This document shows positions 19,043 to 35,100 of a stretch of 64,000 bases of DNA, one piece after another. The stretch is from a virus. Lineage: Duplodnaviria > Caudoviricetes. The notes under the pieces were generated by a model that was not told the DNA's origin, did not search any database, and saw nothing but the letters and a program-made list of their open reading frames with translations. Position numbers and translations under genes: made by a program. The stretch's first letter is position 1, and each line of letters starts with the position of its first letter. The stretch lies in the IMG/VR virus record IMGVR_UViG_3300032007_000001. One strand, given 5' to 3'.

Positions 19043-19642
19043 TTATAAAACATTCATATAATTTCTAGCTTTTTCTCTTATAACATTTCCACCAGTTGAT
19101 GGGTCGTCATGATTTGATGTATAATATGGACTTTCAGCTGTTCCAAGTAATTGCAAATCCCAACGTTCGCAACCGTTGTTTGGACCATACAAATCATCTT
19201 CATCATATAAATTTTCGTTGTCTCCAGCTTCACCATGTGTCATAACATTATTAATGTTAATATCAATTTGCAATTCCTTGCATATTATTGCTATAACTTG
19301 AGCCAAAGTATCAATTTGAGTTTCTGTTGGAGGATTTTCTCCCAAATCATTTGTTGTGGCGCCAACAGCACAACAAAGTGATACCCCAATTGTACCTGTA
19401 TTTAGTTTCCATGTATGAGATAATACATCAGCCAAATTATATGTAGAAACAAAAATTTCTCCATCGCCAGTTATACTTATATGATATTCATCAAAAAGTT
19501 GGTCCCACCAACCAGCTGTCCAATGGAGTATAATTTTTGGACAATCTAATCCTGCATAATTTGCATTTTCGTATAATTCCTCTTTGCTATTACTAGCAAT
19601 TTCTCTAATTTCGTCTAATGTTACTTGTTGCATTGTCGACAC
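19043..19642 (-). CDS. N-acetylmuramoyl-L-alanine amidase (Amidase_2 type)
   Basis: IILHWTAG, YHISI, SHTWKLNTGTIGVSL, TETQIDTL, VMTHGEA and RWDL. Confidence 0.88.
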   Translation of the reverse strand: MSTMQQVTLDEIREIASNSKEELYENANYAGLDCPKIILHWTAGWWDQLFDEYHISITGDGEIFVSTYNLADVLSHTWKLNTGTIGVSLCCAVGATTNDLGENPPTETQIDTLAQVIAIICKELQIDININNVMTHGEAGDNENLYDEDDLYGPNNGCERWDLQLLGTAESPYYTSNHDDPSTGGNVIREKARNYMNVL

Positions 19643-19654
19643 CTCTTTTCTAAA

Positions 19655-22600
19655 TTAAAATTCCAATTGTATTTTTTCACTACCGCTTTCATCTTCATTT
19701 TCTATAATTGAAGTATTGACGCGCTTAGCAAATTCACTTTGATTCATTGCTTCTTCTATTTTTTTCATCATTTCTTCTGCATCTTTGCCATCTTTCATAA
19801 TGCCAAAAATTTGCACTGTTCCAACATTTTCTTTTTCTGCTTTTCTAATTGCATCTTGTTGGGCTTGTAATGACGCTTTTTGAGCATCCAATTTTTGTTG
19901 TTGTTCTAATATTGATTTTTGAGATTCAATAACAGCATTCATTTCTTCTGTTGAACGTGTTCCAGAACGATATTGTTCTCTTATTTGCTTTCTTTTTTCA
20001 TCAGCACTAACATAATTGCTTCCAGAAACAACATTCATGTTATTGGAAAGTCCACCATAAGTTGGTGTTTTTCCAAGATATTTTGAAATGCTATTATAAA
20101 TACTGACATTGTTATTGAATTGTTCTATTGCTGTCATCGGTTTTGGAGGTTTGAATTGCAATTTTCCACTACCTGCTTGTGCACTTACATTAACTCCAAG
20201 TGCTCTTAAACCAGTTCCAATAGCGTCAAGCCAACCAACATTCGTTCCATTCTGGTCATTTGCCGCACCGGCTGGGCAATATTTCCTTTGAATAGCACCG
20301 ATTGTTTTAATGCCTTCATCAATATAATCTTCTTTTAACAAAACAGCTGCTCTTGTAATATTTTCTTCAACAGAAGAATCAACATGGTCATCCATTAAGC
20401 TATAAACATTATACGGTTCTCCATTACCCAATATTCCAGAAGTATCTCCGCCAAATCCATTTTCTGCATATGTAATGGCAGCAAAAAATGCTGGGTCAAT
20501 TCCATATTTACGTGCTGTATCAATAATAAATTGAGCTTTTCCTTTTAATACACCTTGTAAATGTGGTTCTAATTCTGCAGCTGTTATACCAGAATCAACA
20601 GTTACGTCATAATTACCAACATAACCACCGAGGCCAGACATTAATGGATTTGCTACAGTACCATCAGTTCTTGTTAACGGTTGTCTACCACCAGTTGGTC
20701 TTGCTTCTGGTCTATTATCATTACCAGACCAATTTATATCTACGTGAACATTTCCAGTTCCTTCGTCTTCGATAATTGCCGCATAACCATTTGCATGACA
20801 CCATTGAATTATCCATTCCATATCATCTGAGACAACGTCGGTCTTCCAACCAGTATGATGACTATATTCACCACCAGCATGAACAAATGTTTCGGCACCA
20901 CCAGTCATTTCAATTAATTCTCCGCCGTGTGCATCCTTATACGCTCTAGCTAATGCATTCATACCAGCAATTGATTCAGGACGAAGCGTAGACCACTTGG
21001 TTAATTCATCTTCCCAATCATGATTATGCAACATAATGCTTCTATCTAAAGAAGATGAATTTTCTAATCCAATTTGTTGTCTGTTATTATAATTTTGATT
21101 AACGTAATTCATTAAATCTGAATTAACAGATGGCTCATTTTTAACTACACCAGCAATATGTTGCCAGAGTTCGGTTGCTCCTCCAGCTGTCATATTTTTA
21201 AGTTCAAAATTAATAATATCGTCATCTGTCATATCTGGATTCGAAGCATATTTGGGATTTTTCTTTTTTGCCCATTCTAATACATTTCTCTTTATTCTTT
21301 GAGCAAACGGAGTATCTTTACCTGCCAATTCTCTCAAGTAAGCAGCTTCATTTTCCCAATATTGTTTATCTGTACTTCCAGCATTAGGATGATAATAATA
21401 ATTAGCCAAATGAGTGTATAAAATATTTAATTCATCATCATCTTCATAATTATTTGCATACGTTTCAAAGAATTTACCTAATATGTTATTATCAGACATT
21501 TTACTATCTAAAACGGCTGTGTTTTGATTTATAGCTCTTCTGTTTATTGCCAATGCCTGCATCAGTTGTTTTAATGTAACGTTTTGGTCTTGCAACTGTT
21601 TGACCATTTCTTTTAATATCTTTTTCTGTGTATCATTTAATTTACTTAAGTCTATTCCATTATCTTTTAAGTATGTTCTTAAAAATTCTCCTTGGTCCGT
21701 TTCAGATTCAATAACTTTCATAATGTCAATTCCTCTAATTTCGGAATTTTCATTCATGCAAGCTACCCAATCCGCTGTTGCTTCATCAAATTTTTCTCCC
21801 ATACCAAGATAATCTTTTATGGCATCTCCGCCTTTGCCACCTAACCAGCCACCGACCATGCTACCTAACACAAATCCAACACCAGGAATTGGAATTAATA
21901 CCTGTCCAATTGCGCCACCAATAGCGCCACCGGCTACTGATGTACCAGTACCAATTGCAACTCTTGCTAATCGTTCTTTCCAAGAACGTTGATTGCCAGA
22001 CATTGCATCTCCAAATTCTCCAATGGTTTCGCCAAGAGCCGATAACATCCAATATTCTCTTCCAAGATTTCTTGCACCAGAAGCAATGCTTTTCATCATG
22101 CTTGGGTCAAGATTCCTGAGCGCGCTCCAATTTGTTGAAAATGCATTTTTTGTATTTCTCAACGAAGATATAATTTGATTACCAGTACCAGTTTTTAATG
22201 CTCCCCCAAATTTTCTAATATCATCCCAAGAATTTAATCTTATATCACTTAAACTAGAATTAAAAGTACGTTTTAATTGGTTTACAATTTCAACTGGTAC
22301 TTTTCCTTCCATTTCACTGGCTCTAGCTAATTGTGACATTAATTTATTAGGAAGCTTTCTAAAATGACGCAAATCTCCTCTTTTTAGTGACATCCAAAGT
22401 GCATGACGAACGCCACCACCAGCGGCAGAAAGAGGAGCCAAAACATTTCCAATATATGGAGACGCCATATATATTGCACCAGCACCAAGACCAAGATTGA
22501 TTGCATAATTCATAAAATCCGATTCATCTTCGTTGCCTTCCATGGAATGCATTATTTCATCATAATTTGCAATCTGTACTTTCGCTCTACCGGATTTCAT

Positions 22601-25600
22601 AAATTGAATAAATCCAGTATGATTGTCTTGCATTGATGGTGTTCCTTCATCAACATTTTCTTCAGCTTCGCCACGCTTATTAAGCCAATATAATGTCGCT
22701 GCTGAGGCTCCAGCTAATGCCAAACCAGTCCAACCTTTCCCGCCACCAGTTGGACGTGATTTTGTAACCAAATTTTTAACCTGGTTCATTGCACCTTTAC
22801 CCATATATTTAATGCCTTGATATCCAGCACCAAGAGCAAATAAAGTCGTGCCAAGACCAAGAATTGGATTGTTCCCGATAGTTCTTGTAATATTTTGTAC
22901 TGTTTTGTTGTTTGCTAATTCATTTAACCAATGCGCAATCTTTCCTGCCCATTCTGGAAGTTTTTCAAGCAATTCATTTATTTGTTTTACTGCGCCTTCC
23001 AACAATGGATTTATTTTTGTTTGCCAAATATATGCCAAACGCATTAATGCATCTTCTCTTTCAGCTACCATTAATTGCGTTTTTGCTAATTGCGAAGCCA
23101 TTATGGCTAATTCTTTATCAGCATCTGATATTGAATCAGCTAAATCTATTTTTTTCTTTTCGTCTCTTTCTTTTTTACCAACTAAAAATTCTTTTATTTC
23201 ATCAGTTTTTCCTTCTTGCTTCATCGCTGTCAATTGTGCAATTTCTTTTTCAGAATACCCATCTTGTTTTAATAGATTCTGAAAATTATATAAAGAAAGA
23301 CTATTATTTCCTCCTAAGAAATTATCAAACATGGTATATTTTGCTAACATGGCATTTCCCATGTTTTCTTTCCAATCTCCAACTTGGTTGCCATTTCTAT
23401 CCATGAATATGCGACCACGAAGCATTGCGGAATACATTCCTCCGCCCCAACCTGACATCATTCCCCAATACATGGATTGAGACGTATTTTTACCAAAATT
23501 CAATTCTATTTGAGATGTTTTTATCATTAAATTAACAGCATCTGTCATATTCATTCCAGATTGTGTGGCAGAAGCAATAACATCGGTAGCTTTTTCAGCA
23601 TCAATACCCAATTCTCTTGCTCTTGTTACCATACTCTTAATATTTTCAAAAAACATCTTAGTAGACATACCGGATGATTTTGCCTGTTCAACCATATTCG
23701 CTATAATTGTAGCTGTTGTTTTAGCATCTTGTCCAGAATCTTTATAGAAATATTTGATTAAAAAGTCAAAATCATTATTATCCAAACCACTTGTTTCTTT
23801 CAATGAGAATAAATTTTCAGCAAAGAAAGACATGTCGCTTCTATTAGCTTCTGGTGTTGAATTATATCTGCCACCAATATTTCTAGCTAATGACATATAA
23901 AATTTTGTTGGAGCGTCTGCACCAATCATAGCGCCAGAAAGGTATTGATAATATCTACCAGTGTTATATATACGACTCAAATTAGCATTTGAAGCAATAT
24001 CTGCACCAAGAGATATGTCTGTTCTTGCCGCTTGATACATTAACATATCATTTGATACTGCTTTTGAAACGCTATCCTTGAATAATCCTCCTAATGATAG
24101 CATATTGGATAATCCCATTACACCAAATATGCTAAGCAAGAAAGATTTTCCGCCACCCAAAAATCCACCGATTTTTGAAGCCATCGTTAAAATGTTTTCG
24201 CCATTTTTTAAGTCGTTTATTTCATTATTTCTTTGAACTAGTTCTTCATTTAATTTTTTAACTTGTTCTATATCGTCTTTATCTAAATTAAGAATTTGCA
24301 TTGCATTAAGAACTTGCAATGTATTATTAATTTGTTGCTGAATTTCTTTTTGTTTTAAGTCAAGAGAACTTTTATCTACCTTGAAAAAATTTGATAATTT
24401 ATTTGGAATGGTTCTATCCAATACATTTCTTGCATCCAAACCGACAGAATGAGAAATAGAACGAGTAAGATTTCCAATTGTTTTTGTATTTGTTAAACCA
24501 CTTATTTGTCCTTGACGTTTTGTTATGTTTTGTCTTGTATATAATGATACCTTAAATTTATTTATTTTATCATTCCTTGCGGTTTCTGTTTCAGCATGCA
24601 ATATATCATCAATATTCATCCCGGTAGGTTGAATTTGAGAAATAAAGTGTTTTGCAATATCATTAGCACTTAATATACTTTCTTGCGAGGCTCCAGCTCT
24701 TAACGTTTTATTAAAATTTGCATTGCTTTGTTCTATCATATCCACAACAGTATATGACATATTATCCAAAGCTATCGTTGACGTTTGTACTGGACTTGCT
24801 ATTTTTTTCCCTTTTGTTTCAAAAGTACTTACATTTTTTCTTATATCTTGTAAATTTTCAACATTTTGATATGCTTTTAATGTTTGGTCATATCCCTTAA
24901 CAGCATTCTCAAGATTTGAAAATTTTCTATTAGAAATTTGATTAAGAATATTATTTGATTCTTTTATTTGTTCATCTATATTATCTATTACTTTTTTTGC
25001 TGAAATATTGGGTTCGTTTTGAATATCTTTTAATTCTTCAAATAATTTCTCTAATTTTGCAGTAGAAATTTCCTTATTATCCAATTCCTCAATGCCAACT
25101 TGAAAATCTTTAGATAAATCAAAGGTTACAAGTGACTTAATATCATTTATATTTTTAGATATTCCGCTTTTGAAAACGTCAAAAGATGCAGAAGACATTT
25201 GTGGTTCATTTTGATTTTGTAAATCACCACTTAATCCTTGCATATCTTTTTGTGCATTTTCAACCTTGCTTTGAGATAAGCGTATTCTATTAATGCAATT
25301 TTCACAATGACGTTTTAATTCATTAGAATCACTATTGTTCATTGCTGAAATCAATTTATTTTTGAATTCCGATATTGAACTTAAAACATCTATGTTTGTT
25401 TCTTTTGTTTCTATTTTTGTATTTGATAATTTTCTTAAATGACTGAATAATTGATTATATGCACTTAATTCAAATGAAGTATGTTGTACAGAATTAAGAT
25501 TACATGTTTCTTTACTTGCATACTCTAATGTTGTTGCTACTTCACCTAATTGTTTTACTGTTTCTTTATCTTCAAAATCGCAGGTGACTAAAAGATTGGT

Positions 25601-25660
25601 AACTTGCAATAATAAATCATTAAATTGATTAAAATTTCTTTCTAATACTTGTACATCCAA
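19655..25660 (-). CDS. Tape-measure-like protein A with M15-like peptidase and glucosaminidase/lysozyme-like domains
   Basis: 2001 aa, helical with Gly-rich hydrophobic blocks; SHHTGWKTD...HVDI and ARKYGIDPAFFAAITYAENG...IQRKYCP. Confidence 0.8.
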   Translation of the reverse strand: MDVQVLERNFNQFNDLLLQVTNLLVTCDFEDKETVKQLGEVATTLEYASKETCNLNSVQHTSFELSAYNQLFSHLRKLSNTKIETKETNIDVLSSISEFKNKLISAMNNSDSNELKRHCENCINRIRLSQSKVENAQKDMQGLSGDLQNQNEPQMSSASFDVFKSGISKNINDIKSLVTFDLSKDFQVGIEELDNKEISTAKLEKLFEELKDIQNEPNISAKKVIDNIDEQIKESNNILNQISNRKFSNLENAVKGYDQTLKAYQNVENLQDIRKNVSTFETKGKKIASPVQTSTIALDNMSYTVVDMIEQSNANFNKTLRAGASQESILSANDIAKHFISQIQPTGMNIDDILHAETETARNDKINKFKVSLYTRQNITKRQGQISGLTNTKTIGNLTRSISHSVGLDARNVLDRTIPNKLSNFFKVDKSSLDLKQKEIQQQINNTLQVLNAMQILNLDKDDIEQVKKLNEELVQRNNEINDLKNGENILTMASKIGGFLGGGKSFLLSIFGVMGLSNMLSLGGLFKDSVSKAVSNDMLMYQAARTDISLGADIASNANLSRIYNTGRYYQYLSGAMIGADAPTKFYMSLARNIGGRYNSTPEANRSDMSFFAENLFSLKETSGLDNNDFDFLIKYFYKDSGQDAKTTATIIANMVEQAKSSGMSTKMFFENIKSMVTRARELGIDAEKATDVIASATQSGMNMTDAVNLMIKTSQIELNFGKNTSQSMYWGMMSGWGGGMYSAMLRGRIFMDRNGNQVGDWKENMGNAMLAKYTMFDNFLGGNNSLSLYNFQNLLKQDGYSEKEIAQLTAMKQEGKTDEIKEFLVGKKERDEKKKIDLADSISDADKELAIMASQLAKTQLMVAEREDALMRLAYIWQTKINPLLEGAVKQINELLEKLPEWAGKIAHWLNELANNKTVQNITRTIGNNPILGLGTTLFALGAGYQGIKYMGKGAMNQVKNLVTKSRPTGGGKGWTGLALAGASAATLYWLNKRGEAEENVDEGTPSMQDNHTGFIQFMKSGRAKVQIANYDEIMHSMEGNEDESDFMNYAINLGLGAGAIYMASPYIGNVLAPLSAAGGGVRHALWMSLKRGDLRHFRKLPNKLMSQLARASEMEGKVPVEIVNQLKRTFNSSLSDIRLNSWDDIRKFGGALKTGTGNQIISSLRNTKNAFSTNWSALRNLDPSMMKSIASGARNLGREYWMLSALGETIGEFGDAMSGNQRSWKERLARVAIGTGTSVAGGAIGGAIGQVLIPIPGVGFVLGSMVGGWLGGKGGDAIKDYLGMGEKFDEATADWVACMNENSEIRGIDIMKVIESETDQGEFLRTYLKDNGIDLSKLNDTQKKILKEMVKQLQDQNVTLKQLMQALAINRRAINQNTAVLDSKMSDNNILGKFFETYANNYEDDDELNILYTHLANYYYHPNAGSTDKQYWENEAAYLRELAGKDTPFAQRIKRNVLEWAKKKNPKYASNPDMTDDDIINFELKNMTAGGATELWQHIAGVVKNEPSVNSDLMNYVNQNYNNRQQIGLENSSSLDRSIMLHNHDWEDELTKWSTLRPESIAGMNALARAYKDAHGGELIEMTGGAETFVHAGGEYSHHTGWKTDVVSDDMEWIIQWCHANGYAAIIEDEGTGNVHVDINWSGNDNRPEARPTGGRQPLTRTDGTVANPLMSGLGGYVGNYDVTVDSGITAAELEPHLQGVLKGKAQFIIDTARKYGIDPAFFAAITYAENGFGGDTSGILGNGEPYNVYSLMDDHVDSSVEENITRAAVLLKEDYIDEGIKTIGAIQRKYCPAGAANDQNGTNVGWLDAIGTGLRALGVNVSAQAGSGKLQFKPPKPMTAIEQFNNNVSIYNSISKYLGKTPTYGGLSNNMNVVSGSNYVSADEKRKQIREQYRSGTRSTEEMNAVIESQKSILEQQQKLDAQKASLQAQQDAIRKAEKENVGTVQIFGIMKDGKDAEEMMKKIEEAMNQSEFAKRVNTSIIENEDESGSEKIQLEF

Positions 25661-25724
25661 TCTTTTTCACCTCTTTTTACAATTACTCTAAAATAAGAAT
25701 AAAAAAAACAAACGCAATAAAAAC

Positions 25725-25750
25725 AAAAAGCCGCTAAAAAGCGGCTTTCT
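25725..25750 (-). terminator. Terminator between the short chaperone and TMP-A
   Basis: AAAGCCGC-taaaaa-GCGGCTTT; on the minus strand it is followed by a U-run. Confidence 0.8.
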
Positions 25751-25763
25751 TTTTAAGAAAATT

Positions 25764-26114
25764 TTACTTCTTTTCTTCTAATTCTTTTTCTTTCTTCGCT
25801 CTTTCTACATCATATAAACGATACAGTGTTGAAGTAATGAAAGGATTAACTCTATCAAACAAAGCATTTTTATCATCTTGTGATAACACTTCATCATTAA
25901 TAGATACCAAAGCTTCTTTCATTGTTTCGGCTTGCATTTTGAACATGCGAGATACCATATCGTTATCACTAGAATTTTCAAGAGTAGCTGTATGTTCTTT
26001 TGAATTAAGAATCTTAAATGTCCACTTCTTATCAAATCTATTGATTTCTATCTGACCAGTACCCAATGATACGATATCTTCTATCATTTTCTCTACATCG
26101 TTTACGTTTTTCAT
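25764..26114 (-). CDS. Tail assembly chaperone, short (gpG-like) form
   Basis: 116 aa, paralogous to the N-terminus of 38444..39343 (FDKKWTFKILNSKEH vs FDKTWVFRTLSPQEH; EALVSIND vs KALLSING); lies next to tape-measure genes. Confidence 0.6.
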   Translation of the reverse strand: MKNVNDVEKMIEDIVSLGTGQIEINRFDKKWTFKILNSKEHTATLENSSDNDMVSRMFKMQAETMKEALVSINDEVLSQDDKNALFDRVNPFITSTLYRLYDVERAKKEKELEEKK

Positions 26115-26193
26115 TGAAAAATCAGTCCTTTACATATTTCTGCTAATTTAATATAGATAAAACGCACAACTATAATATTTATCCAAACATTTT

Positions 26194-29100
26194 TTACGCA
26201 ATTGCACTATCACTTACAATTTCTACATCATCCATAAATTCTTCGGCGATTTCTTGTATTATTTTCACTAATGTACTTTTGTCTTTTGGTTTTTCTGTTA
26301 ATTTCGGTTCTGTTTTTAATAATTCACTTACAGATGAAAGTTTTTCCATAACATTGTCCATTCTTGCTTTTATTTCTGTTTCTGACATTCCCATATTACC
26401 CATTATTTCTTTTCGTTTTTCATCAACGGATTGGTAACTTTGCGTTGGGTCGACATTCATATTATCTGTAAGTCCACCGTAAGTAACTTTACCACCAGAA
26501 GCATATTCTGCTATTTTTGACATATCATTTACTTGTTCTTGCAATGGACGGTCATCTTTTGGTTTTCCTTGTGGAAGATTTAACATCTGACCTGGTGAAT
26601 ACATTGAACTTCCGCCACCAGTTTTTATAACGTATGTTGGGTCTTTATAATATTCATCATCATGTACAACCATGTTTCTTCCAGAACTGTTTCCGTATAT
26701 ACCACCTGCACCATCAGCTATATTAACGTGTTGATAATCACTACCATCATCTGTCATATATACTAAAACGTCGCCGCGTTGTACATTGCTTCCATTATAT
26801 ACTTGTAACAATCCTCTTGCATTTGCGTCATTTGCAAGTTGTTCTACACCAACAACACCTTTATCCAATTCTTCTTTTAAGAAAGAATTATAATAAGCGC
26901 CAATTTTTGTAGCAGCTTCAACACACCCGACGGTACCATTGTCCATCGTTACACCGGCATATCTCTGATAACCTTGTTCAAGTAAATCATTTCCACCGGT
27001 TAAAACGCCATTATCAATACTGAAATAACTTGTTGCACCGCCACCACCTGAAGAACCGCCACTAAGACTTCCACTTCCGGCAACACCCATTCTTCTCATA
27101 ACAGAGTCTGCATACTCATTAATAGAAGGATATTCGGTACCGTCCCAACTTTGTACTCTGCTTTTTTCTTCTTCACTATAACTTACAGCTCCTTCTCCTC
27201 CATACCAAGCAATCGCTACGTCTCGCCAATTTCCGAATTTTCTATAATACTCCAACATTTTATATCTTGCAACATAGTTTTGGTTTTCCGGTGTCATTGG
27301 AGCGCCGGAACCAAGTCCAGCAGCCTCTGCCCAATATGGCCAATTTTCTGGCATAATTTGGAAAGCGCCAGAAGCACCAGAATCGCTATTAATAAGGTCG
27401 TAATCTCCACCAGATTCTTGTCCCATAATAGCACGCATAAAAGCGTCTACTCCTTCTATTCCAGCAGAAGAACCTCCTAAAGAAAAACCTCCCATCATTG
27501 CTTTCATTTTTGCTTCTGTATTGGCTGCAATATAATCATTCAATTCTCCTTGGTCTTTTAATGAAAGTGCTAACATGGAATATGCTTTTTTTAATTCGCT
27601 GGCAGAAATTACCTGTAAAGCTTCGCCATTGTAAACTTCTCCAAGAATTTTAGCTATATTACCAATTTCATAATTTTTTACCATTTCATGATAATTGTTT
27701 GCTTGTTTGAACCAAAAACCATCTTCATCTTCTGGATTTTCGTCCATATGATAATAATAGTTAGCTAGCATTTCATATTTATCTTTATCTTCACCACTAA
27801 GACCTTGAGCTTTTTTAGCAAACCAATTCGCCTTTACTGTATTGTCTTCCCATTCTTTTGTTAATGCTTCTCTTATTTTCTTTCTTAATTCTGGAGTATT
27901 AAATGGATTATTTTTTAATGAACGTGAAGCTAAAAACATAGCTGCTTGGTCATCATCGTACATTTTCTTAAATTCTTTATATTTATCCAACCAAAGTCTT
28001 TGTTGGTCATCATTCATTTTTCTCCAATCCATCCCATGATTAGCTAAACTTATTGATACTAGAGAAGAAAATTCTCTATTTGACAATCCAAGCGCCATTG
28101 CTGCTTCCCCAAATGTATTGGATTGGACAAATAAACTTTCTTTTTTATCTTCATGATTTCTTAATAATTCTTCATCTTCTGATAATGGTGACATTGACCC
28201 AAAATTTTGTGCAGAACGTTCATCCATTATGCCAAAATTTCTATTTAATGCCATATTTTGATTCAAATATGTTTGGTAATAATTAGCAAGCATTTGTCTT
28301 TGACTCGAATCTTGTCCTTCCATTTCCAATGGAGATGCTTCTGCGACAGACGGAGACAAATAATCTAATGCAAACGGAGCCATACTACCAACAAAAGCAC
28401 CACCACGTCTGAACGTATTAATAAATTGTGCTGGGTTTTTAACGTGAAATTTTGTTGCTAATACAGTTGCTAATGCACCCATACCAATTTCACCAGCCAA
28501 TTCAGAGCCTGACATGATTAAAGTATCTTTACCAATTTCGCTTAAATCCATATCTCCGTCGCCAAAAAAACCCTCGAATGCAACGTTCATAAGTAAATTT
28601 GTACCGAAGTTTTTACCAGCGCTTCTCCATGTTGTGCGTTCAACAAGCTTGCCAGCTCTAGCCATAGCTTCTCTTCGTCTTTGAGCTTTTGAAAGTTTAC
28701 CCATTTTTCCAGCATTTCTGGAAAACATATTTTTTAATCCGCCAAGTTTTCCTCTGCCTTTAAATAATGAATATCCGGTTACTGCTGCCAAAGCCAAAGC
28801 TGCAGCTCCACCAATTAATCTGTTTTTATCTTTATCTACTAATTGAACTTTTGCATCACCAGAACGTAAAAATTCGTCTAATTTTTGTTCTTCGGATTTA
28901 GCTGAATGTTCAGCTATAACGTCTTGTAGTGTCGTTGCTCCTGCGAAAATAGCAGCTAACAACATTGTTTTTTGTCCTCTTCCAAGACCATCTAAATGAG
29001 AAATTACATTCGTTACTAAACTTTTTTCTGCATTCGTTGCTGGAGCAGAGGTTAATAATTTCATAGGTAAAGAAGCCAAATTTTTAAGAAGTTTCGTTCC

Positions 29101-32100
29101 AACATATTTAGCTATTCTTCCACCAGTATAAAGCATAAGCAAGGAAGCGACTGGATGATTTTCAAAAAATTCCCATGCTTTTTTTCCAAGTTTTGATTCC
29201 AAAAATTTAGAAATCAATTCTGACATTTTATTATAGAATTCTTCAACTTTTTCTGTTAATTTTTTAACTATATCACTTAATGAATCATTAAAATTAACAT
29301 GAAGCATATGTGCAATTCTATTGATAGAAGACATATATTTTGCTTCTAATTTTTGTACTTCGCTTAATTCATTTGCGGCTGTTCCTAATGCAGCTACATA
29401 ATTTTCCATAGAAGCTATTGGAGCATTTGGGTCTTTTGCTTGGTCTATAGATTTTAATTTTTCTTTTAATGCATCTATACCTTGTGTTTGCGCAATTCCC
29501 AATAATTCAACAGAATCTTTTTCACTGTAGCCATTTTCACGCAGTCTATCGACAAAAGTCATTTGTCCGACGTTATCGTTTATTTCTCCGAACATTGTCG
29601 CTTGCGCAAAAATGCGGTCAACCATTTTATCATAATATTCATTATTAATATTACCAAAACGGTCAATTGGAATTAAAGCAGATGTAACAGCATCAGCAGC
29701 ACTAGATTCACCTGTTAGCATTCCAAAAAACATATTCTTTCCCCAATTTTTTGAAGAAGTTGCTTGCCAACCAGAGGCTGCTTTACCAGTAGAAGCTATT
29801 ATAGAACCTATATCTTGAATTAACAGATTCGTTGTTTCTGAAAATGAGCCCATAATTCCAGTTACTCTCATTTCAGAAAATCCCATTTCTCTGTAATTTT
29901 TTGCTAGTGGCGCTATTATATCTGCTAACGTATCAACACTGACATTATTTTGGATTGCCATCATTTCCATTTTTCTAAAATGTTTTACAGTATCTTCTGC
30001 AGACAATCCCAAATCTCTATAAAATGACGTTACAAATTTCGTTATACTGGCATCACTAACGCCAAACAATTCCTTGTCTGCTGCTAATTGAGTTGCCATA
30101 TAACGCATATCAGCTTGATTTTGGCTAATTGTATTAAAACGATTCCCACCAACATTGTTATATAAATTCATATATAAGTTCTGTACAAATGGAAAATCCA
30201 TAGAACCATATGTCAAATCATAATATGCTTGTGAAGCTCTATATGAAAGTGCATCATTTGATTCTCTATTAATTGGAGCACCATGTGCTATATCTGTTCT
30301 TGATAAATTATAATTGGCTAATCCAAGTTGTTGCATCCTATTTATTACGTCACTTGGAGCTTTTGTAATTAAATCTAAAATTGAATTTCCGCCCATCATC
30401 ATTGCTGTAGAACCAGCAACCATAGCAAAAAATGTTTTGCTAGATGAAAAGAAATCTTTCATTGTATCAACAAAACTTTTTGAAGCTGTTTTAATATCAT
30501 TTATTCTTTCTTTTGAATCTGCTAATTTTTTCCTTATTTCCTTAAATTGTTTCAAATAAGGAGAATCAACATTGACTCTTTCCAATTGATTAATTATTAT
30601 GCTATAATTGTTAATCAATTTATCTAAATTCTTATCATATATATCTAAAACTTTTATATCAGATTGATTGAAATTATTGATTACATTAAATTGGTTTATC
30701 AATCCAATTTGTTGTTCTGATGCTTTTAATAAAGTTCCTCCCATTCCTTCGACTATTTTGGAAAGAGATTCATCACTTACTATACCGTTATTAAATAATT
30801 CATCAAATTCATGCATATGTTCTTTCAATGAATTATCAGTTTCATATAACGTTCTTGACATATCCAAATTATTTGCATAGAATTTTTCATTCATTATGTT
30901 TGTATTTGGAATCATAAAAACGTCAGAATATAATTTAGATGAAACGCCAATTTTACTTAAATCGTTTTTAACTTCATCATCAAGCATTCCACCTTGTTTT
31001 ATATATTTTAACTGATTCTTGAATGCTTCATGACTGAAATTAATTTCATCCAATTCACTAAATTGTAAAAGTTTCGTATTTGCTTCTATTTCTTCTGGTA
31101 TTTTTTCAATTAATCTATCTAATTCTTGTATTTTTTTCTTTGCATCATCAGTCAATGAATCATAATCTGTCTTTTCATCCATGACTTCTTTTAATGCTTC
31201 TGTTCCTTTGGAAAAAATATCATCTAATTTATGAGATACTTCCAAAAATTTTTTTAAGTATTTATTTGAACCGTCTTTTGTTTTTAAGTGATTTATTTTT
31301 TCTCTAACGCCATCAGATAATTCTTTTACAGAAGAAATATAATCAAGCATAACTTCATTTGTTTTATCTTCTGACTTAAAATCAATTAGTTTTTCTTTTA
31401 AGTTTTTAACATTTTCATGAACGTCTGAAATTCCTCTTAGAAGAACTATGCTATCGTCCAAAAATCTTTCATCTATTTTACGTTTTGGCGTTTGTAATTC
31501 TTCATGAGAATGTTGTAATTCTGATGTTGATTTTTCTAAATCTCTTATAATTTTTTCAATATTTAATTTTTTTGTTTTTACATCATAATCTATTTTTGTT
31601 CCATTAGCAAATTTTGGCATTGCATCAAAAAACTTTGTCTGGTCAGAACTTATTTTATCTGCTAATGCACTTACTTTTCTATCATCTATAAAACTTCCAA
31701 CATGGTCAGATACTTTTGCTATTGAATTGGCAACATCATCTTTTTTATTAGCAATTTGTTGCAACGATGCTTGAAGAGAATCAACGATGGACGTATCTAA
31801 TCCAGTATGCATTGATTCATTAAATTCTTCTTTCAAAACCAAAAAAGCAGAATCTAATGTTTTTTCGATTTCTTGGATTGCTGATATATCTTGTTTTACT
31901 AATTGTTCTACGTCTATTAATTTTTTTGCATCAGAAACTAAGCTAATTGTTTGGTCTAACCATTCAATTAACATTCCCAATTCCTGTTTTGCTTTATTTT
32001 CAGTTAATTTTTCAATAGTTTCTAATAAACTGCTTTTTGTTTTTTCAATTTGTCCTTCGAGCACATTCATTTTATTAGATAAAATTTTTTGTGCTTTTAC

Positions 32101-32115
32101 TGCAGACATAGACAT
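26194..32115 (-). CDS. Tape-measure-like protein B with lytic transglycosylase and CHAP/NlpC-like domains
   Basis: 1973 aa; AIMGQESGGDY...SGASGAFQIMPENW...AIAWYGG and GTVGCVEAAT...RGDVLVY...QHVNIADG..IYGNSS. Confidence 0.82.
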   Translation of the reverse strand: MSMSAVKAQKILSNKMNVLEGQIEKTKSSLLETIEKLTENKAKQELGMLIEWLDQTISLVSDAKKLIDVEQLVKQDISAIQEIEKTLDSAFLVLKEEFNESMHTGLDTSIVDSLQASLQQIANKKDDVANSIAKVSDHVGSFIDDRKVSALADKISSDQTKFFDAMPKFANGTKIDYDVKTKKLNIEKIIRDLEKSTSELQHSHEELQTPKRKIDERFLDDSIVLLRGISDVHENVKNLKEKLIDFKSEDKTNEVMLDYISSVKELSDGVREKINHLKTKDGSNKYLKKFLEVSHKLDDIFSKGTEALKEVMDEKTDYDSLTDDAKKKIQELDRLIEKIPEEIEANTKLLQFSELDEINFSHEAFKNQLKYIKQGGMLDDEVKNDLSKIGVSSKLYSDVFMIPNTNIMNEKFYANNLDMSRTLYETDNSLKEHMHEFDELFNNGIVSDESLSKIVEGMGGTLLKASEQQIGLINQFNVINNFNQSDIKVLDIYDKNLDKLINNYSIIINQLERVNVDSPYLKQFKEIRKKLADSKERINDIKTASKSFVDTMKDFFSSSKTFFAMVAGSTAMMMGGNSILDLITKAPSDVINRMQQLGLANYNLSRTDIAHGAPINRESNDALSYRASQAYYDLTYGSMDFPFVQNLYMNLYNNVGGNRFNTISQNQADMRYMATQLAADKELFGVSDASITKFVTSFYRDLGLSAEDTVKHFRKMEMMAIQNNVSVDTLADIIAPLAKNYREMGFSEMRVTGIMGSFSETTNLLIQDIGSIIASTGKAASGWQATSSKNWGKNMFFGMLTGESSAADAVTSALIPIDRFGNINNEYYDKMVDRIFAQATMFGEINDNVGQMTFVDRLRENGYSEKDSVELLGIAQTQGIDALKEKLKSIDQAKDPNAPIASMENYVAALGTAANELSEVQKLEAKYMSSINRIAHMLHVNFNDSLSDIVKKLTEKVEEFYNKMSELISKFLESKLGKKAWEFFENHPVASLLMLYTGGRIAKYVGTKLLKNLASLPMKLLTSAPATNAEKSLVTNVISHLDGLGRGQKTMLLAAIFAGATTLQDVIAEHSAKSEEQKLDEFLRSGDAKVQLVDKDKNRLIGGAAALALAAVTGYSLFKGRGKLGGLKNMFSRNAGKMGKLSKAQRRREAMARAGKLVERTTWRSAGKNFGTNLLMNVAFEGFFGDGDMDLSEIGKDTLIMSGSELAGEIGMGALATVLATKFHVKNPAQFINTFRRGGAFVGSMAPFALDYLSPSVAEASPLEMEGQDSSQRQMLANYYQTYLNQNMALNRNFGIMDERSAQNFGSMSPLSEDEELLRNHEDKKESLFVQSNTFGEAAMALGLSNREFSSLVSISLANHGMDWRKMNDDQQRLWLDKYKEFKKMYDDDQAAMFLASRSLKNNPFNTPELRKKIREALTKEWEDNTVKANWFAKKAQGLSGEDKDKYEMLANYYYHMDENPEDEDGFWFKQANNYHEMVKNYEIGNIAKILGEVYNGEALQVISASELKKAYSMLALSLKDQGELNDYIAANTEAKMKAMMGGFSLGGSSAGIEGVDAFMRAIMGQESGGDYDLINSDSGASGAFQIMPENWPYWAEAAGLGSGAPMTPENQNYVARYKMLEYYRKFGNWRDVAIAWYGGEGAVSYSEEEKSRVQSWDGTEYPSINEYADSVMRRMGVAGSGSLSGGSSGGGGATSYFSIDNGVLTGGNDLLEQGYQRYAGVTMDNGTVGCVEAATKIGAYYNSFLKEELDKGVVGVEQLANDANARGLLQVYNGSNVQRGDVLVYMTDDGSDYQHVNIADGAGGIYGNSSGRNMVVHDDEYYKDPTYVIKTGGGSSMYSPGQMLNLPQGKPKDDRPLQEQVNDMSKIAEYASGGKVTYGGLTDNMNVDPTQSYQSVDEKRKEIMGNMGMSETEIKARMDNVMEKLSSVSELLKTEPKLTEKPKDKSTLVKIIQEIAEEFMDDVEIVSDSAIA

Positions 32116-32142
32116 AGTATATCAGCTCCTAAAAATATAAAT

Positions 32143-32175
32143 AAAAAAAGAAATGGCATAAAAACCATTTCTTTT
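32143..32175 (-). terminator. Terminator between TMP-C and TMP-B
   Basis: AAAAGAAATGG-loop-CCATTTCTTTT followed by a U-run on the minus strand. Confidence 0.7.
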
Positions 32176-32182
32176 AATTTTT

Positions 32183-35100
32183 TTATTGTGGAGCCACAGC
32201 TTCTTCCATAATTTGATGAGATTCTTCGGAGTTTCTAACATAATTGCCATATACATTTTCATGCACTTTGCTCATTGCATACGTCATGGCATTTATAACA
32301 TATGCTTTAGATACTCCTCCACCAATAACATTAAGATTAACGTTAACATTATTTTTAGAATCTATATCATTTTGTTTTTTCCAGTCTTCTTCAGCTCTTT
32401 CTGCATCTGACGTATCATATCTACCAGCACTAGAAGAATATGCATTTTCAGCACTTTGAGCTGCTCTATCTGTTGCTTCCATAGCGGCTTCATTGAACCA
32501 TGTTGTTTTTCCAGTATATCCGTTTTCATCCCTGAATTTCTTTTCCATTTTTTCAATCATTTCTCTACCAGAAGAATGATATTGTACCATTTGACCGGTT
32601 TTTTCATCATATGAAAAGAATCCTTGTTGATTGAAACCATATAAATCCTTATCTGTAACTCCAGAATTAAGATAGAAATCATCCAATACTCCTTGCGGAG
32701 TCATAAAACGTTCTCTTTCTCTTCCTGACGCCGTTAATCCAGTAAGCATCATTCTGCCAGTAGCAATTCTATTATCCCAACCATTTCTATTCGCAAATTC
32801 AAGTAAATTCTTTTGTTGCGTTCTAACTTGGTCTGTTGCTGTTTGTAATGCTTTTGATGGGTCTGCTAAACTTTTTATTCTTTCTTCTGGTGTTTGATTT
32901 TGATTTGATTGTTGTTGTGTTTGACTAGCTATATTAGATGCTGCTGGTATGCCATTGATTGCATAATTATTTAAGTCTGGATTTTCTACAATTTGACCAT
33001 TTTTGGTCATTTCAAAATACATTTGGTCTCCAACTGTATCGCCAATATATTCTCCAGCTTTTATTGCTGCACCTTCAGCAAATCCAGAAACATCACCAAG
33101 ATTACCATATTTAGCAATAATATTGTTGCCATGATTAACTTCTACAACGCCACCAAGTTTTTCATCTTGATATGCTTTTAATACATTACCAGCGCCGATT
33201 GTACTGATTTTAGTTCCAGCATCAACGCTATATGTATTACCCATAATGCCGGCTTCTTTATTAACACCGGATAAAAGTTCTGCACTTGCAATGCCACTAA
33301 ATAATGGAAGTTTTTTAATGCCGGTCATATTTTCATTTGTTTTTTCGGCATTATCAACGTTATCTTTTACTTCTTTATCATTTATTGTAATTTTTTTAGG
33401 ATAATTTTCTGCAGCATGTTTACCAATTTCTTTAGCAGTTGTTTCTGTATGAGGAGCCAACAAAGTAGACAAATCTGAATGAAGATTTGCACTAACGGTA
33501 CCACCCGTTTGTTTGTTCTTAAATTCATCAATTAATTTATCTGTTATATCTTTTGCTAATTTGTCTGTGTCTCCAGATAATCTATATTTTGCATTATCAC
33601 TAACAAGTTCATATATTTTATCATAAATTTTTTGATTATCTTTTAATTTTCCAGTATTTGTACCAGTATAATATTCCATATCTGATAAAGATTCATCATT
33701 TAATATATCAGCAAATTCTCCAGCTAAATTTTGTGATGCTTTATCTTTACCATCTTCGTAATAATCTCTTGCCGTTTGATATTTTCCTTTGAATTGAGCA
33801 TTATTCAATCCACTTTGTGATAATCCTCTATTTATTGCTTCTTTTAATAATTCTGGATTATCCAATGTTTGTTGTGTTAATTGTTGTTTTTGTTCACCAA
33901 CAATATCACCAGCAACAATCGCAGCTGTTAAATCGCCATAACCTCTTGTTTTCAATTCTTTGAAAATTTGGTCCATATATTGTTGTTGGTCCTGCGTCAA
34001 TTTGGTCATGGTAGTACCATGTTTTTTCAATTGTTCTTCAGCCGCTCTAGCTCTATTATCATTACTATTAATTAAGCTATTTGTATCGTCTGTATATTTA
34101 TCTGATGCCCATTTAGATGCGTCTAAATAATCTTCACCCATCTTTTGGCCATCGTTATCGCCGATACCAAAAGCATCTTTCAAATAATCTCCAGCTTTAT
34201 CTCCTAAGAAACCACCAATAGCCATACCAGCCATTGTGCCAAGTGGTCCCCCAAGGCTTCCGATTGCACCACCAAGAACTGAACCAGCTGTAGCGGAGCC
34301 ACCAGAAATTAAGAATCTACCAAATCTTTCTCCTAATGTAAATTGATCAGGATTATTCATATATCCGCCAATTTCATTAAATCCAGCACCTATAAAGTTT
34401 GCTAATGCATTACCTTTAGCAAACGTTCCAAGTGTAGACATTGGAGCAGAAAGCGAACCACTTTTTGCCATTCCAATAATTCCACCAAGGAATCCTCCAC
34501 CAGCCGATACCATATCACCTAATGGAGCATTTGATGTTTGTGAAGAAAATTGTTGAGATAAACGTTTTTCTATTGCTGCTCTATCCAAATTATTAACTGA
34601 AACTTGAGATTCTGGACTAACGGTATCTAATCTTGTAGCAGCTTCTTGAATTCTTTGATTTGCTTCTTCAATTGAGCGTGCCATTCGTTCTTCTTCACTA
34701 TCGCCAGCTTCGCTTGGAGCTATTTGTTCAAATTTTGGCATAGCCCCAGTTCCGCCTTTTCCATTTTCAATTTGAACTTTTACATCGCCACTTGAAAATG
34801 TACTTTGCAGAGAAGAAATAACATCTCCAATATTGCTTGCTAAATAAGCACCGCCAGCAACCGCTGCGGCACCAAGAGCCAATTTTTTTCCTCTTGACAT
34901 ATTTTTAATGAATTTTGCTCCAGTACCAAGAGCTTTGGGGTCTCTTGTTATTCCATATTTTGCAAAATCTGTTGCTACATTTAATGCACCACGTCCAGCT
35001 GTATATGCTAGAGCTCCGCCAGCTAATAATCCTGGAAAATTGGTTGTAGCCAAATTTCCAAGAGCTTGTCCGGTTTCAGTACCAGCAAACTTTGTAAATG

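Follow-up and report, generated by a model that had tools for sequence, protein, structure and literature searches.

Tandem tape-measure-like paralogues of a giant phage carry different cell-wall enzyme domains in an exchangeable slot

Results

Three giant genes in tandem at a tape-measure position

The window, a stretch of 64,000 nucleotides, belongs to an uncultured giant phage that is kin of Bacillus phage G and whose 504-kb record is complete according to CheckV. We found three tandem open reading frames (ORFs) on the minus strand, termed here A, B and C, in the following arrangement.

38444..39343, minus: long chaperone-like form, a 299-aa ORF upstream of C; its N-terminal ~120 aa are common with the 116-aa ORF
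32183..38431, minus: paralogue C, tape-measure-like, 2082 aa (ORF; PF10145 3.2e-5, below cutoff; phrog_167 3.9e-8; TIGR01760 4.7e-4; phage G gp183 1e-11)
32146..32175, minus: terminator-like hairpin between C and B, a 12-pair stem then a T run; also inverted repeat I8
26194..32115, minus: paralogue B, tape-measure-like, 1973 aa (ORF; paralogy; TIGR01760 8.9e-3)
25764..26114, minus: short chaperone-like form, a 116-aa ORF lying between B and A; homology with the 299-aa ORF at its N-terminus (8e-10)
25725..25750, minus: terminator-like hairpin 3′ of the 116-aa ORF, an 11-pair stem, 5 of its pairs GC, and a T run after it
19655..25660, minus: paralogue A, tape-measure-like, 2001 aa (ORF; paralogy; phage G gp183 2e-8)
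19043..19642, minus: Amidase_2 (N-acetylmuramoyl-L-alanine amidase), 199 aa, a separate gene (PF01510 4.1e-9, above cutoff; phrog_5867 9.3e-37)

The genes run in the order 299-aa chaperone-like ORF, C, B, 116-aa ORF, A, Amidase_2, a tube-initiator-like gene (598 aa), a 1517-aa gene and a baseplate wedge gene. A, B and C are thus placed as a tape-measure gene is, after tail chaperones and ahead of the tube-initiator, hub and baseplate wedge genes. This order agrees with that of phage G and of relative L004, in which sheath-like and tube-like genes are found upstream, and the order of A, B and C is identical in every relative. Furthermore, the long chaperone-like ORF is kept upstream of the C-type genes in relatives (287-310 aa) and the short one in all relatives (116-122 aa). 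The Amidase_2 gene lies 12 nt downstream of A and scores 37.3 bits against the PF01510 cutoff of 26; an orthologue was found in relative L008 and is missing from L006.

The triplication is ancient

The three proteins align with one another (A-B, E 2e-40 over ~1086 aa; A-C, 5e-30; B-C, 2e-24), and they are the only three copies in the 504-kb record. They have in common a core and, C-terminal to it, hydrophobic or glycine-zipper segments.

35252..36514, minus: conserved tape-measure core of C, aa 640-1060 (alignment with A, B and 12 family members)
34157..34393, minus: glycine-zipper segment of C, aa 1347-1425 (PF21724 DUF6861, 8.9e-5; aligns with A 1209-1290)
29341..30603, minus: conserved core of B, aa 505-925 (alignment with A, C and family members)
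28762..28968, minus: hydrophobic TM-like segments of B, aa 1050-1118 (hydropathy scan)
23084..24316, minus: conserved core of A, aa 449-859 (alignment with B, C and family members)
21791..22036, minus: glycine-zipper/hydrophobic segment of A, aa 1209-1290 (alignment with C; hydropathy scan)

Matches to tape-measure models are weak yet concordant (PF10145, TMP_3, TIGR01760 and phrog_167), the best of the three paralogues being C, with 24.3-27.1 bits for PF10145 (cutoff 33.2) and 19.3 bits for TIGR01760 (cutoff 28.8), for which B scores 15.1 bits. Among the 12 family cores, four match PF10145 and three match TMP_3, every one below cutoff, and the curated cutoff was reached by no tape-measure HMM (PF10145, TIGR01760, PF20155/TMP_3). 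The only detectable homologue among deposited phages is gp183 of Bacillus phage G, a 2893-aa protein annotated as “tail protein with lysin activity” with the note “tapemeasure”, which shows 23-25% identity in the core.

In a tree of the cores, the A-, B- and C-type groups each have 100/100 support and each include members from every phage, which indicates that the triplication is old and predates the divergence of all sampled relatives. All sampled members are intact open frames of ~2000 aa or more. These comparisons indicate that A, B and C are true, ancient paralogues of the one giant tape-measure/tail-lysin gene known from jumbo myophages resembling phage G. They follow a common plan, consisting of a polar helical N-terminus, the tape-measure core, hydrophobic/glycine-zipper segments, then a helical module and the enzyme slot, and lastly a C-terminal tail specific to the type. 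At 0.15 nm per residue (figure from PMC3556154), ~2000 aa predicts a tail of ~300 nm.

Each paralogue has its own set of wall-enzyme domains

Wall-enzyme domains are located in the last quarter of A, B and C, and the set differs in each. In A and B they lie between flanks that the two proteins share.

27679..28047, minus: pre-slot helical module of B with LANYYYH, aa 1357-1479 (aligns with A 1331-1446, 6e-5; conserved in B orthologues)
26197..26571, minus: post-slot tail of B with TYGGLTDNMNV..VDEKRK, aa 1849-1973 (aligns with A 1835-1919, 1e-6; L004 B-type tail, 7.7e-15)
21281..21700, minus: pre-slot helical module of A with LANYYYH, aa 1321-1460 (alignment with B; conserved in the family)
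19658..20158, minus: post-slot tail of A with TYGGLSNNMNV..ADEKRK, aa 1835-2001 (alignment with the B tail)

The borders common to both are ANYYYH before the slot (LANYYYH at 21389-21409 in A and 27748-27768 in B) and GGLxxNMNV..DEKRK after it (TYGGLSNNMNV at 20030-20062 in A, TYGGLTDNMNV at 26452-26484 in B). The A-B comparison aligned these flanks and gave no alignment between the enzymes that they enclose. C has a C-terminal tail unrelated to that of A or B, landmark positions are up to ~190 aa apart between paralogues, and the distance from NYYYH to G.L..NMxV ranges from 297 to 514 aa across proteins. The domains are as follows.

32987..33241, minus: degenerate M23/LytM domain of C, aa 1731-1815 (PF01551 2.7e-9, above cutoff; catalytic motifs lost)
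27160..27441, minus: B1, SLT lytic transglycosylase, aa 1559-1652 (PF01464 8.4e-7 with the whole protein and 3.1e-8 with the piece, above cutoff)
26617..26982, minus: B2, divergent NlpC/P60-type Cys-His domain, aa 1712-1833 (invariant residues; family profile matches)
20711..21034, minus: A1, LAS/M15-like zinc-peptidase fold, aa 1543-1650 (invariant residues; profile against PDB; AF2 and structure comparison)
20189..20626, minus: A2, GH73-type N-acetylglucosaminidase domain, aa 1679-1824 (phrog_25820 7.1e-9; homologue and PDB profile matches)

A preliminary description of this DNA had proposed a different wall-enzyme set at the same place in each paralogue, which agrees with the ORFs, the domain calls and the alignment of the A and B flanks; the motifs that it quoted (SHHTGWKTD, HVD, QESGG, GAFQIM, LANYYYH and the TYGGL motifs among them) are all present where it placed them. 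Its assignments for A and B also hold, each at the level given below: an M15-like peptidase and a glucosaminidase/lysozyme-like domain in A, a lytic transglycosylase and a CHAP/NlpC-like Cys-His domain in B, and hence, going by fold assignments, one glycan cutter and one peptide cutter in each protein.

For A1 the assignment concerns the fold. The domain carries SHHTGWKTD (20837-20863) and HVD (20738-20746), and seven residues (H1594, H1601, H1602, D1608, E1631, H1639 and D1641) are invariant across its family (n=12). It has no Pfam match at E up to 10; the family profile matched VanY-type M15 carboxypeptidases in the PDB at E 0.03, aligned over SxHxxGxAxD. In structure comparisons using the AF2 model (pLDDT 77.7), the top eight VIA matches all have the Hedgehog/DD-peptidase fold at middling Z scores of 4.9-7.1, including ShhN (Z 7.1, rmsd 3.2 over 101 aa), MepA (5.7), Ply500 (5.7), LysB4 (5.2), 1lbu (5.0) and LdcB (4.9). 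Atlas gave TM 0.54-0.64 to HH_signal/Peptidase_M15_3 and VanY clusters, and Foldseek matches against the PDB were weak (E >= 0.19). These models indicate a Hedgehog/DD-peptidase (LAS, M15-type) fold.

A2 draws most of the 853 HMMER matches. The window copy has no direct Pfam match; PF01832 is matched by 34/36 of its homologues (36-52% identity), and the orthologue in relative L006 exceeds the PF01832 cutoff (43.1 vs 30.2). Furthermore, the family profile matched 8yxk (2.4e-30), LytB (6.6e-15) and AtlE (2.9e-8) in the PDB, and the catalytic Glu is kept, the Glu of AENG aligning with a nearly invariant E. These profile matches identify A2 as GH73.

B1 scores 29-33.6 bits against the PF01464 cutoff of 21.3 and contains QESGG (27406-27420), GAFQIM (27352-27369) and the catalytic Glu of the E-S motif, which identifies it by sequence as an SLT/GH23 lytic transglycosylase. 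In the B2 family (n=15), Cys1731, His1796 and Asn1809 are invariant around a GD..V..HV core, and nine members match PF00877 (best E 1.6e-4, reporting threshold E<=1). The window copy matches CHAP PF05257 at E 0.02 (15.8 bits, below the cutoff of 26) and TIGR02219 at 0.077. Against the PDB, ~18/26 matches of the B2 profile are NlpC/P60 enzymes (best 4.6e-3), with the B2 Cys not aligned by HMMER to the catalytic Cys of those chains. The Atlas feature score is 0.92 and the AF2 prediction has a pLDDT of 31. B2 is thus placed in the NlpC/P60 superfamily by profile evidence only, from sub-threshold matches.

The M23 domain of C has lost its catalytic residues

The M23 call made earlier for C is supported for the fold, at 37.5-42.6 bits against the PF01551 cutoff of 28.7, and not for a cutting enzyme. 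The zinc ligands (HxxxD, HxH) and the catalytic His are all gone: a deletion removes the first His, Thr replaces its Asp, YAH reads YGN and HxH reads QMY. We therefore rejected an active enzyme here. The orthologues P0007 and P0006 are intact, with HKGND/HDGID, YAH and HVH/HLH. Since every catalytic residue is missing, C would add a binding or regulatory module rather than a cutter.

Among PDB sequences the nearest are inactive LytM domains, those of SpoIIQ (7.4e-5) and EnvC (3.2e-3), which resemble the domain of C in having no zinc ligands and are its best solved-structure matches. EnvC, SpoIIQ and NlpD, the last also a degenerate LytM domain protein, are cellular division or sporulation factors, and EnvC and NlpD activate Amidase_3 enzymes. 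By analogy with EnvC and NlpD, peptidoglycan binding or regulation of a partner hydrolase is more likely than cutting. The partners of EnvC and NlpD are Amidase_3 enzymes, whereas the amidase adjoining the phage genes is Amidase_2, and an activator role for C is hypothetical.

The slot is an exchangeable cassette site

Across orthologues the flanks are kept and the enzymes in the slot differ. In L004 the A1-type (LAS-like) domain occurs in the C-type protein (hhalign 96.6%, E 6e-10), and both the A-type and the B-type proteins of this relative have SLT and Peptidase_C39_2. Because orthologues keep the flanks with other enzymes, and the same enzyme type occurs in different paralogue types across phages, the sequences indicate that the slot, bounded by conserved motifs in A- and B-type proteins, is an exchangeable cassette site. 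The statement of the preliminary description that no domain type is repeated holds in the source phage and fails in the clade, as L004 illustrates. Likewise, duplication and then divergence in place do not by themselves account for the history, the comparisons indicating that slots were refilled later than the triplication, and independently.

A glycan cutter is paired with a peptidase in 5/6 A- and B-type proteins, and catalytic residues are invariant in 4/5 domains. Judged by sequence, the slots of the source phage contain four domains with apparently intact catalytic residues (LAS/M15-like, GH73, SLT and NlpC/P60-like) and the degenerate M23/LytM domain of C. No switch or invertible element was found around the three genes.

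Discussion

A proposed role in tail ejection and wall opening

In the account that we favour, at a probability of about 70% taken as a whole, ancient tape-measure paralogues with exchangeable enzyme slots serve in tail ejection and wall opening. At infection, as in T5, TM4 and JBD30, the proteins would come out of the tail tube. The C-terminal regions would next reach the wall, where the glycan-strand and peptide-stem cutters would open a local hole, with the inactive LytM domain of C binding the wall or regulating a hydrolase rather than cutting; the hydrophobic segments would help form a membrane conduit.

The tape-measure trimer and its ejection from the tail have been described (PMC11445458, PMC10966104). 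Because solved tails hold such a trimer, A, B and C may assemble as a heterotrimer with a single copy of each, an analogy that we hold tentatively, at somewhat less than even odds. Every tail would then carry the whole kit in fixed stoichiometry; the earlier proposal of one virion with a broad kit, all three proteins in one tail, is plausible and remains putative. A bolder version, to which we give slightly less credence, is that the tape measure of the clade is an obligate A:B:C heterotrimer, with three anciently diverged subunits in the canonical trimer positions and the LytM domain of C in a wall-binding or hydrolase-regulating subunit; the tail tip would have exactly one of each enzyme slot and the kit would be re-tooled by cassette swaps. 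Strict registration of such a heterotrimer is favoured neither by the unrelated tail of C nor by the offset of the landmarks. Moreover, the terminator-like hairpins that follow C and the 116-aa gene make unequal expression possible.

The same hairpins, in separating the genes, also suit a reading in which the tape measure that sets tail length is a single paralogue, most likely C, with A and B acting as tail lysins, in the tail lumen or associated with the baseplate, on a tape-measure-like scaffold. C has the best tape-measure HMM matches, its enzyme is inactive, hence it may be purely structural, and the pairs of Staphylococcus jumbo phages are annotated in this way (tape measure plus tail lysin). 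We consider this reading unlikely, given that a core of ~420 aa is common to all three proteins, their lengths are similar (1973-2082 aa), the three groups are equally deep and fully supported with the ~2000-aa length kept in every relative, the hydrophobic segments that tape measures typically have are present in A and B too, and the one protein of phage G is both tape measure and lysin.

Independent expression, which separate terminator-like signals would allow, could instead yield virions that each have a homotrimer of one paralogue, with mixed progeny for hosts or growth states that differ in peptidoglycan chemistry, as walls of different chemotypes could be matched by the different enzyme sets. 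Alternative tails were the second option in the preliminary description. This appears less likely again: the surroundings of the genes revealed neither an invertible segment nor a long inverted repeat nor a recombinase, every relative retains all three genes in this order, and a C-only tail would have no active cutter in the source phage. Least probable, in our estimate, is plain redundancy, with copies arising from jumbo genome inflation and enzyme differences being neutral mosaicism with no functional partition. Paralogues do accumulate in jumbo phages, the L004 A- and B-type proteins have the same two domain types and the M23 domain of C has already decayed, but the three groups go far back, all members sampled have intact frames, and both the invariance of catalytic residues in four of five domains and the recurrent pairing of glycan cutter with peptidase argue against it.

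Relation to known tape measures and tail lysins

Lysin domains in tape measures are familiar, and tandem pairs with different hydrolases are already published; the three-copy, different-enzyme arrangement of the tape-measure paralogues described here extends that pattern. Such tandem genes for a tape measure and a tail lysin/lysozyme occur in MarsHill, Madawaska and Machias, which are jumbo phages of Staphylococcus (bioRxiv 10.1101/2020.12.14.422802), and in Staphylococcus phage DC4 (UFVDC4_00260 and 00259; PMC10638138). The pairs resemble A, B and C in being adjacent ~2000-aa tape-measure-like proteins, with M23 in one and PF18013 and PF00877 in the other. They differ in having two copies instead of three and in belonging to a different jumbo lineage, and neither cassette exchange nor an inactive M23 is among the features described in the accessible part of these reports. 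No tblastn match to the Staphylococcus jumbo phages was found even at E 1.

Muralytic domains embedded in tape measures are also found in TM4 Tmp (PMC1796659), enterococcal TMP-LT (PMC10194240) and phiCbK gp95, which has a CHAP domain (PMC3556154). In these, as here, a hydrolase lies in the C-terminal part of the tape measure and is thought to act after ejection from the tail; they are single genes, usually with one enzyme, whereas A and B each have two enzyme domains in a set of three proteins. Phage G gp183 is likewise a giant tape measure with lysin, encoded between tail chaperones and baseplate wedge. Phage G has this one gene, whereas in the clade described here three paralogues of ~2000 aa have diverged, and each has a separate enzyme slot.

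Three tape-measure-like genes in a tail and baseplate module

The window, with a G+C content of about 30%, corresponds to positions 193438-257437 in an IMG/VR virus record of 504,279 bp, complete according to CheckV. Its minus strand encodes a myophage tail and baseplate module, near which we found a baseplate wedge, a tube-initiator-like protein, thymidylate synthase, SbcCD and a helicase. Three long ORFs, termed C, B and A, are arranged head to tail on this strand, in the order 299-aa ORF, C, B, 116-aa ORF, A, Amidase_2 gene, 598-aa tube-initiator-like gene, 1517-aa protein and wedge:

38444-39343, minus strand, 299-aa ORF upstream of C
32183-38431, minus strand, C, ORF of 2082 aa
26194-32115, minus strand, B, ORF of 1973 aa
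25764-26114, minus strand, 116-aa ORF between B and A
19655-25660, minus strand, A, ORF of 2001 aa
12 bases downstream of A, Amidase_2 gene of 199 aa (PF01510, 4.1e-9)
12658-17211, minus strand, 1517-aa hub-like protein downstream of A

A aligns with B at an E value of 2e-40 over about 1086 residues, A with C at 5e-30 and B with C at 2e-24, with 23-25% identity in all pairs. The whole genome holds exactly three such copies, which, judged by these alignments, are true paralogues. On their common plan, a polar helical N-terminus leads into a conserved core of about 420 aa; hydrophobic or glycine-zipper segments follow, then a helical module, then the enzymes and lastly a tail.

None of the three reaches the curated cutoff of the tape-measure HMMs, and the sub-cutoff matches are mutually consistent: C matches PF10145 (3.2e-5), phrog_167 (3.9e-8) and TIGR01760 (4.7e-4), PF10145 and TIGR01760 being below their curated cutoffs, B matches TIGR01760 at 8.9e-3 (below cutoff), and among 12 cores of the family four match PF10145 and three TMP_3 (below cutoff). 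The core profile retrieved coiled-coil noise only from PDB sequences, and tblastn with the core of B found no match in deposited phages. The sole homologue among 50,697 deposited phages is gp183 of Bacillus phage G (2893 aa), recorded as 'tail protein with lysin activity' with the note 'tapemeasure'. The frameshifted chaperone genes gp181/182 lie on one side of it and the baseplate wedge on the other, and the gene order around the tape measure is the same in the window. Because of this homology and synteny, we accept the designation 'tape-measure-like' for A, B and C.

An exchangeable enzyme slot

The preliminary description had placed the wall-degrading cassettes of A and B between common motifs, and the alignments bear this out: the ANYYYH module before the slot aligns between A and B at 6e-5 and the TYGGL(S/T)(N/D)NMNV..(A/V)DEKRK tail after it at 1e-6, whereas the enzymes in between do not align. 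Neither the core of C by itself nor an alignment of three cores retrieved related loci from viral contigs; three such loci were recovered via the protein database, all with the same layout, namely a protein of about 300 aa, orthologues of C and B (C-type and B-type), a protein of about 120 aa and an orthologue of A (A-type).

Table. Slot contents in the window and in related loci
Window: C, degenerate M23; B, SLT and NlpC-like; A, LAS-like and GH73
L008 (about 82% identical): C-type gene off the contig; B- and A-type contents as in the window
L006: C-type, intact M23 (1e-24); B-type, Phage_lysozyme2 PF18013 alone (1e-23); A-type, LAS-like and GH73
L004: C-type, LAS-like of the type found in A, not M23; B-type, SLT and Peptidase_C39_2; A-type, C39_2 and SLT, order reversed

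Both between orthologues and between paralogues, one lysin domain has taken the place of another, the kind of swapping that the preliminary description had raised for comparison among relatives. The LAS-like domain of the L004 C-type protein matches A1, the LAS/M15-like domain of A, with an hhalign probability of 96.6% (E 6e-10), and the bracketing motifs lie 297-514 aa apart, varying with slot content. On this comparison, the relatives show the slot to be an exchangeable enzyme site. The suggested pairing of a glycan cutter with a peptide cutter holds for five out of six proteins of A- and B-type, the partner of the glycan cutter being a domain of peptidase type. The statement that no domain type is repeated fails in L004, where SLT and C39_2 occur in both the A- and the B-type protein. 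We rejected recent gene conversion between these two cassettes: their SLT domains share only 44% identity and their C39_2 domains 27%, and the domain order is reversed. The cores are about 25% identical, and the two SLT domains of L004 are related without being recent copies.

A maximum-likelihood tree of the cores separates A-, B- and C-type groups, each with 100/100 support and with members from different phages. Because each group spans different phages, the triplication is older than their divergence; it came first, and refilling of the slot followed.

Two relatives have TnpB-type genes (OrfB_IS605 / Cas12f1-like_TNB) as insertions within their tail modules, at 6047-7339 in L004 and at 3137-4468 in the contig encoding the C-type protein P0006, both just upstream of chaperone-like genes and a C-type tape measure.

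Enzyme domains of A and B

The GH73 domain of A (A2, aa 1679-1824) has no direct Pfam match in the window copy. An exhaustive HMMER search yielded 853 relatives, and 34 of 36 aligned relatives match PF01832 Glucosaminidase. PDB entries matched by the family profile include 8yxk, described as 'phage cell wall hydrolase' (2.4e-30), and pneumococcal LytB (6.6e-15). The alignment shows that A2 retains the catalytic Glu.

The A1 domain, at about aa 1543-1650, belongs to a small family, and its window copy again has no Pfam match. Twelve aligned members share the invariant pattern TGGAE..H..G..SHHxGWKxD..E..HxD..SGxDxR, and their profile aligns with VanY-type M15 carboxypeptidases over the SxHxxGxAxD zinc motif (E 0.03). 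In an AF2 model (pLDDT 77.7), the top eight VIA matches all have the Hedgehog/DD-peptidase fold, including ShhN (Z 7.1), MepA (5.7), the phage M15 endolysins Ply500 (5.7) and LysB4 (5.2), Zn DD-peptidase (5.0) and LdcB (4.9). Atlas matches (TM 0.54-0.64) are to HH_signal/Peptidase_M15_3 and VanY clusters, and Foldseek against the PDB and BFVD gave no match at E 0.001 or better. Because these matches agree, though each score is middling, what the top Foldseek matches have in common, together with the VIA and Atlas matches, indicates a LAS/M15-like fold, so that the earlier label 'M15-like' is correct at the level of the fold. For the A1-type group we came across no curated family name.

We regard the A1-type LAS-like peptidase domain, from its distribution, as a mobile module. 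It also occurs inside other giant proteins (up to 5732 aa, some of 4,600-5,700 aa) and as a stand-alone protein of 194 aa, the proteins concerned being P0095 (5732 aa, residues 4217-4328), P0150 (4637 aa, 3681-3794), P0107, P0069, P0074, P0129, P0077, P0064 and P0022.

The first domain of B (B1, aa 1559-1652) is an SLT lytic transglycosylase, above the Pfam cutoff and with intact ES and GAFQIM motifs. The second, the Cys-His domain B2 (aa 1712-1833), has 13 homologues, 44-51% identical, on viral contigs 11-48 kb long. In a 15-sequence alignment Cys1731, His1796 and Asn1809 are invariant, and the family has a GD..V..HV core. PF00877 is matched by 9 of the 15 members, and the window copy matches CHAP at 0.02. 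The 15-sequence profile retrieved mostly NlpC/P60 endopeptidases from the PDB (RipA/B, MepS/Spr, CwlO; best E 4.6e-3), where a three-sequence profile had given noise only, and a protein-language-model search also pointed to NlpC/P60 (score 0.92). AF2 from a two-sequence alignment gave no usable fold (pLDDT 31), tblastn of B2 against deposited phages found no match, and neither PF05382 nor PF00877 matched the phage's own genome at E up to 10. This supports, and does not prove, that B2 is a distant NlpC/P60-superfamily domain.

The B2-type domain recurs in L009 (2092-4011, encoding P0164) and in L010-L022. In P0164 it lies mid-protein, and with 640 aa this protein is not tape-measure-sized. Because of such a host and the 11-48 kb contigs, we conclude that the family also serves smaller phages.

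A degenerate M23 domain in C

The preliminary description had assigned C an M23 wall cutter. The fold stands, with PF01551 matched above cutoff, and the cutting does not: the orthologues P0007 and P0006 retain HKGND/HDGID, YAH and HVH/HLH in the M23 alignment, and in C the first His is deleted, Asp is replaced by Thr, YAH by YGN and HxH by QMY. The best matches among sequences of solved structures are SpoIIQ (7.4e-5) and EnvC (3.2e-3), both classic LytM domains without catalysis. Because the catalytic motifs are lost and these are its nearest matches, we consider that one of the five enzyme domains, namely the M23 of C, is inactive. A wall-binding or hydrolase-regulating role would be a natural guess, by analogy with EnvC and NlpD. 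The window C and its orthologues would thus offer a natural comparison of an inactive M23 domain with active ones.

Relation to known tape measures and a possible heterotrimer

Tape measures bearing hydrolases are textbook knowledge, and lysin domains in them are ordinary (PMC1796659; PMC10194240; PMC3556154). Duplicated tape-measure/tail-lysin genes have been published for Staphylococcus jumbo phages: MarsHill and its relatives encode 'two potential tape measure proteins', of which one carries PF18013 and PF00877 (10.1101/2020.12.14.422802), and in DC4 the gene for a 1962-aa 'tail lysozyme' adjoins that for a 1990-aa 'tape measure' with M23 (PMC10638138). These proteins have no detectable similarity to the triplet, and a search of the literature for tape measures that are multiple, duplicated or heterotrimeric yielded only this pair. 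We consider the triplication described here to be real and conserved, with a well-defined swappable slot. Such a clearly delimited slot, with lysins replaced between orthologues and paralogues, is a natural model for work on modular virion-associated lysins and for their reuse. It also suggests a testable route by which a giant phage could gain a larger wall-breaching kit without a longer single protein. Two poorly annotated lysin families, LAS-like and divergent NlpC/P60-like, emerge here, the window copies of both being without above-threshold Pfam matches.

Domain assignments, slot and order of evolutionary events come from the sequence comparisons above, and the proposed mechanism from established tape-measure biology. 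A tape-measure trimer fills the tube, is released at infection and forms a channel (PMC11445458), and the hydrolase motif of the TM4 tape measure aids infection (PMC1796659). By analogy, the C-terminal parts of A, B and C would reach the wall after release, where glycan and peptide cutters could jointly open it locally. Because three paralogues match the three-fold stoichiometry of solved tape measures (PMC11445458, PMC10966104), an A:B:C heterotrimer would be attractive; the tail of C, which is unrelated to those of A and B, and the offset landmark positions between paralogues are mild counter-indications. If A, B and C co-assemble, theirs would be, to our knowledge, the first heteromeric tape measure.

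Expression signals and neighbouring genes

Neither an invertible element nor a long inverted repeat was detected around the three genes, the only matches being short, AT-rich and attributable to chance, and sigma-70-like promoter counts were not above those of shuffled sequence (101 versus 91.8). Two terminator-like hairpins followed by a T run are present:

32146-32175, minus strand, directly after C
25725-25750, minus strand, directly after the 116-aa gene

Because of these positions, the paralogues may be in separate or attenuated transcription units (C; B with the 116-aa gene; A with the amidase and beyond).

The 116-aa ORF and the N-terminal ~120 aa of the 299-aa ORF are homologous (E 8e-10), and both genes are kept in all relatives. 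They look like a short and long tail-chaperone pair encoded as two separate genes and not by a G/GT frameshift, as described for Bacillus phage 0305phi8-36 (PMC2147016). ARAGORN calls a 95-nt tRNA-Asn(GTT) at 38158-38252 (minus strand), inside the coding sequence of C, towards its 5' end; the call is probably a false positive.

The Amidase_2 gene next to A, present in L008 and absent in L006, is predicted to add a third bond specificity to the tail module. In L006 a 568-aa protein (22271-23977) directly follows the A-type gene, without Amidase_2 between them.

The 1517-aa protein has no Pfam match at E 0.01, and its residues 682-768 give PHROG matches to 'tail protein' and 'endolysin'. Two stretches, at about aa 700-770 and 1185-1205, look like LysM by eye (ITVREGMTLYELAEKYLGD...; YVIQAADTFHSIAKDIYG) and possibly represent a peptidoglycan-binding module in the baseplate hub.
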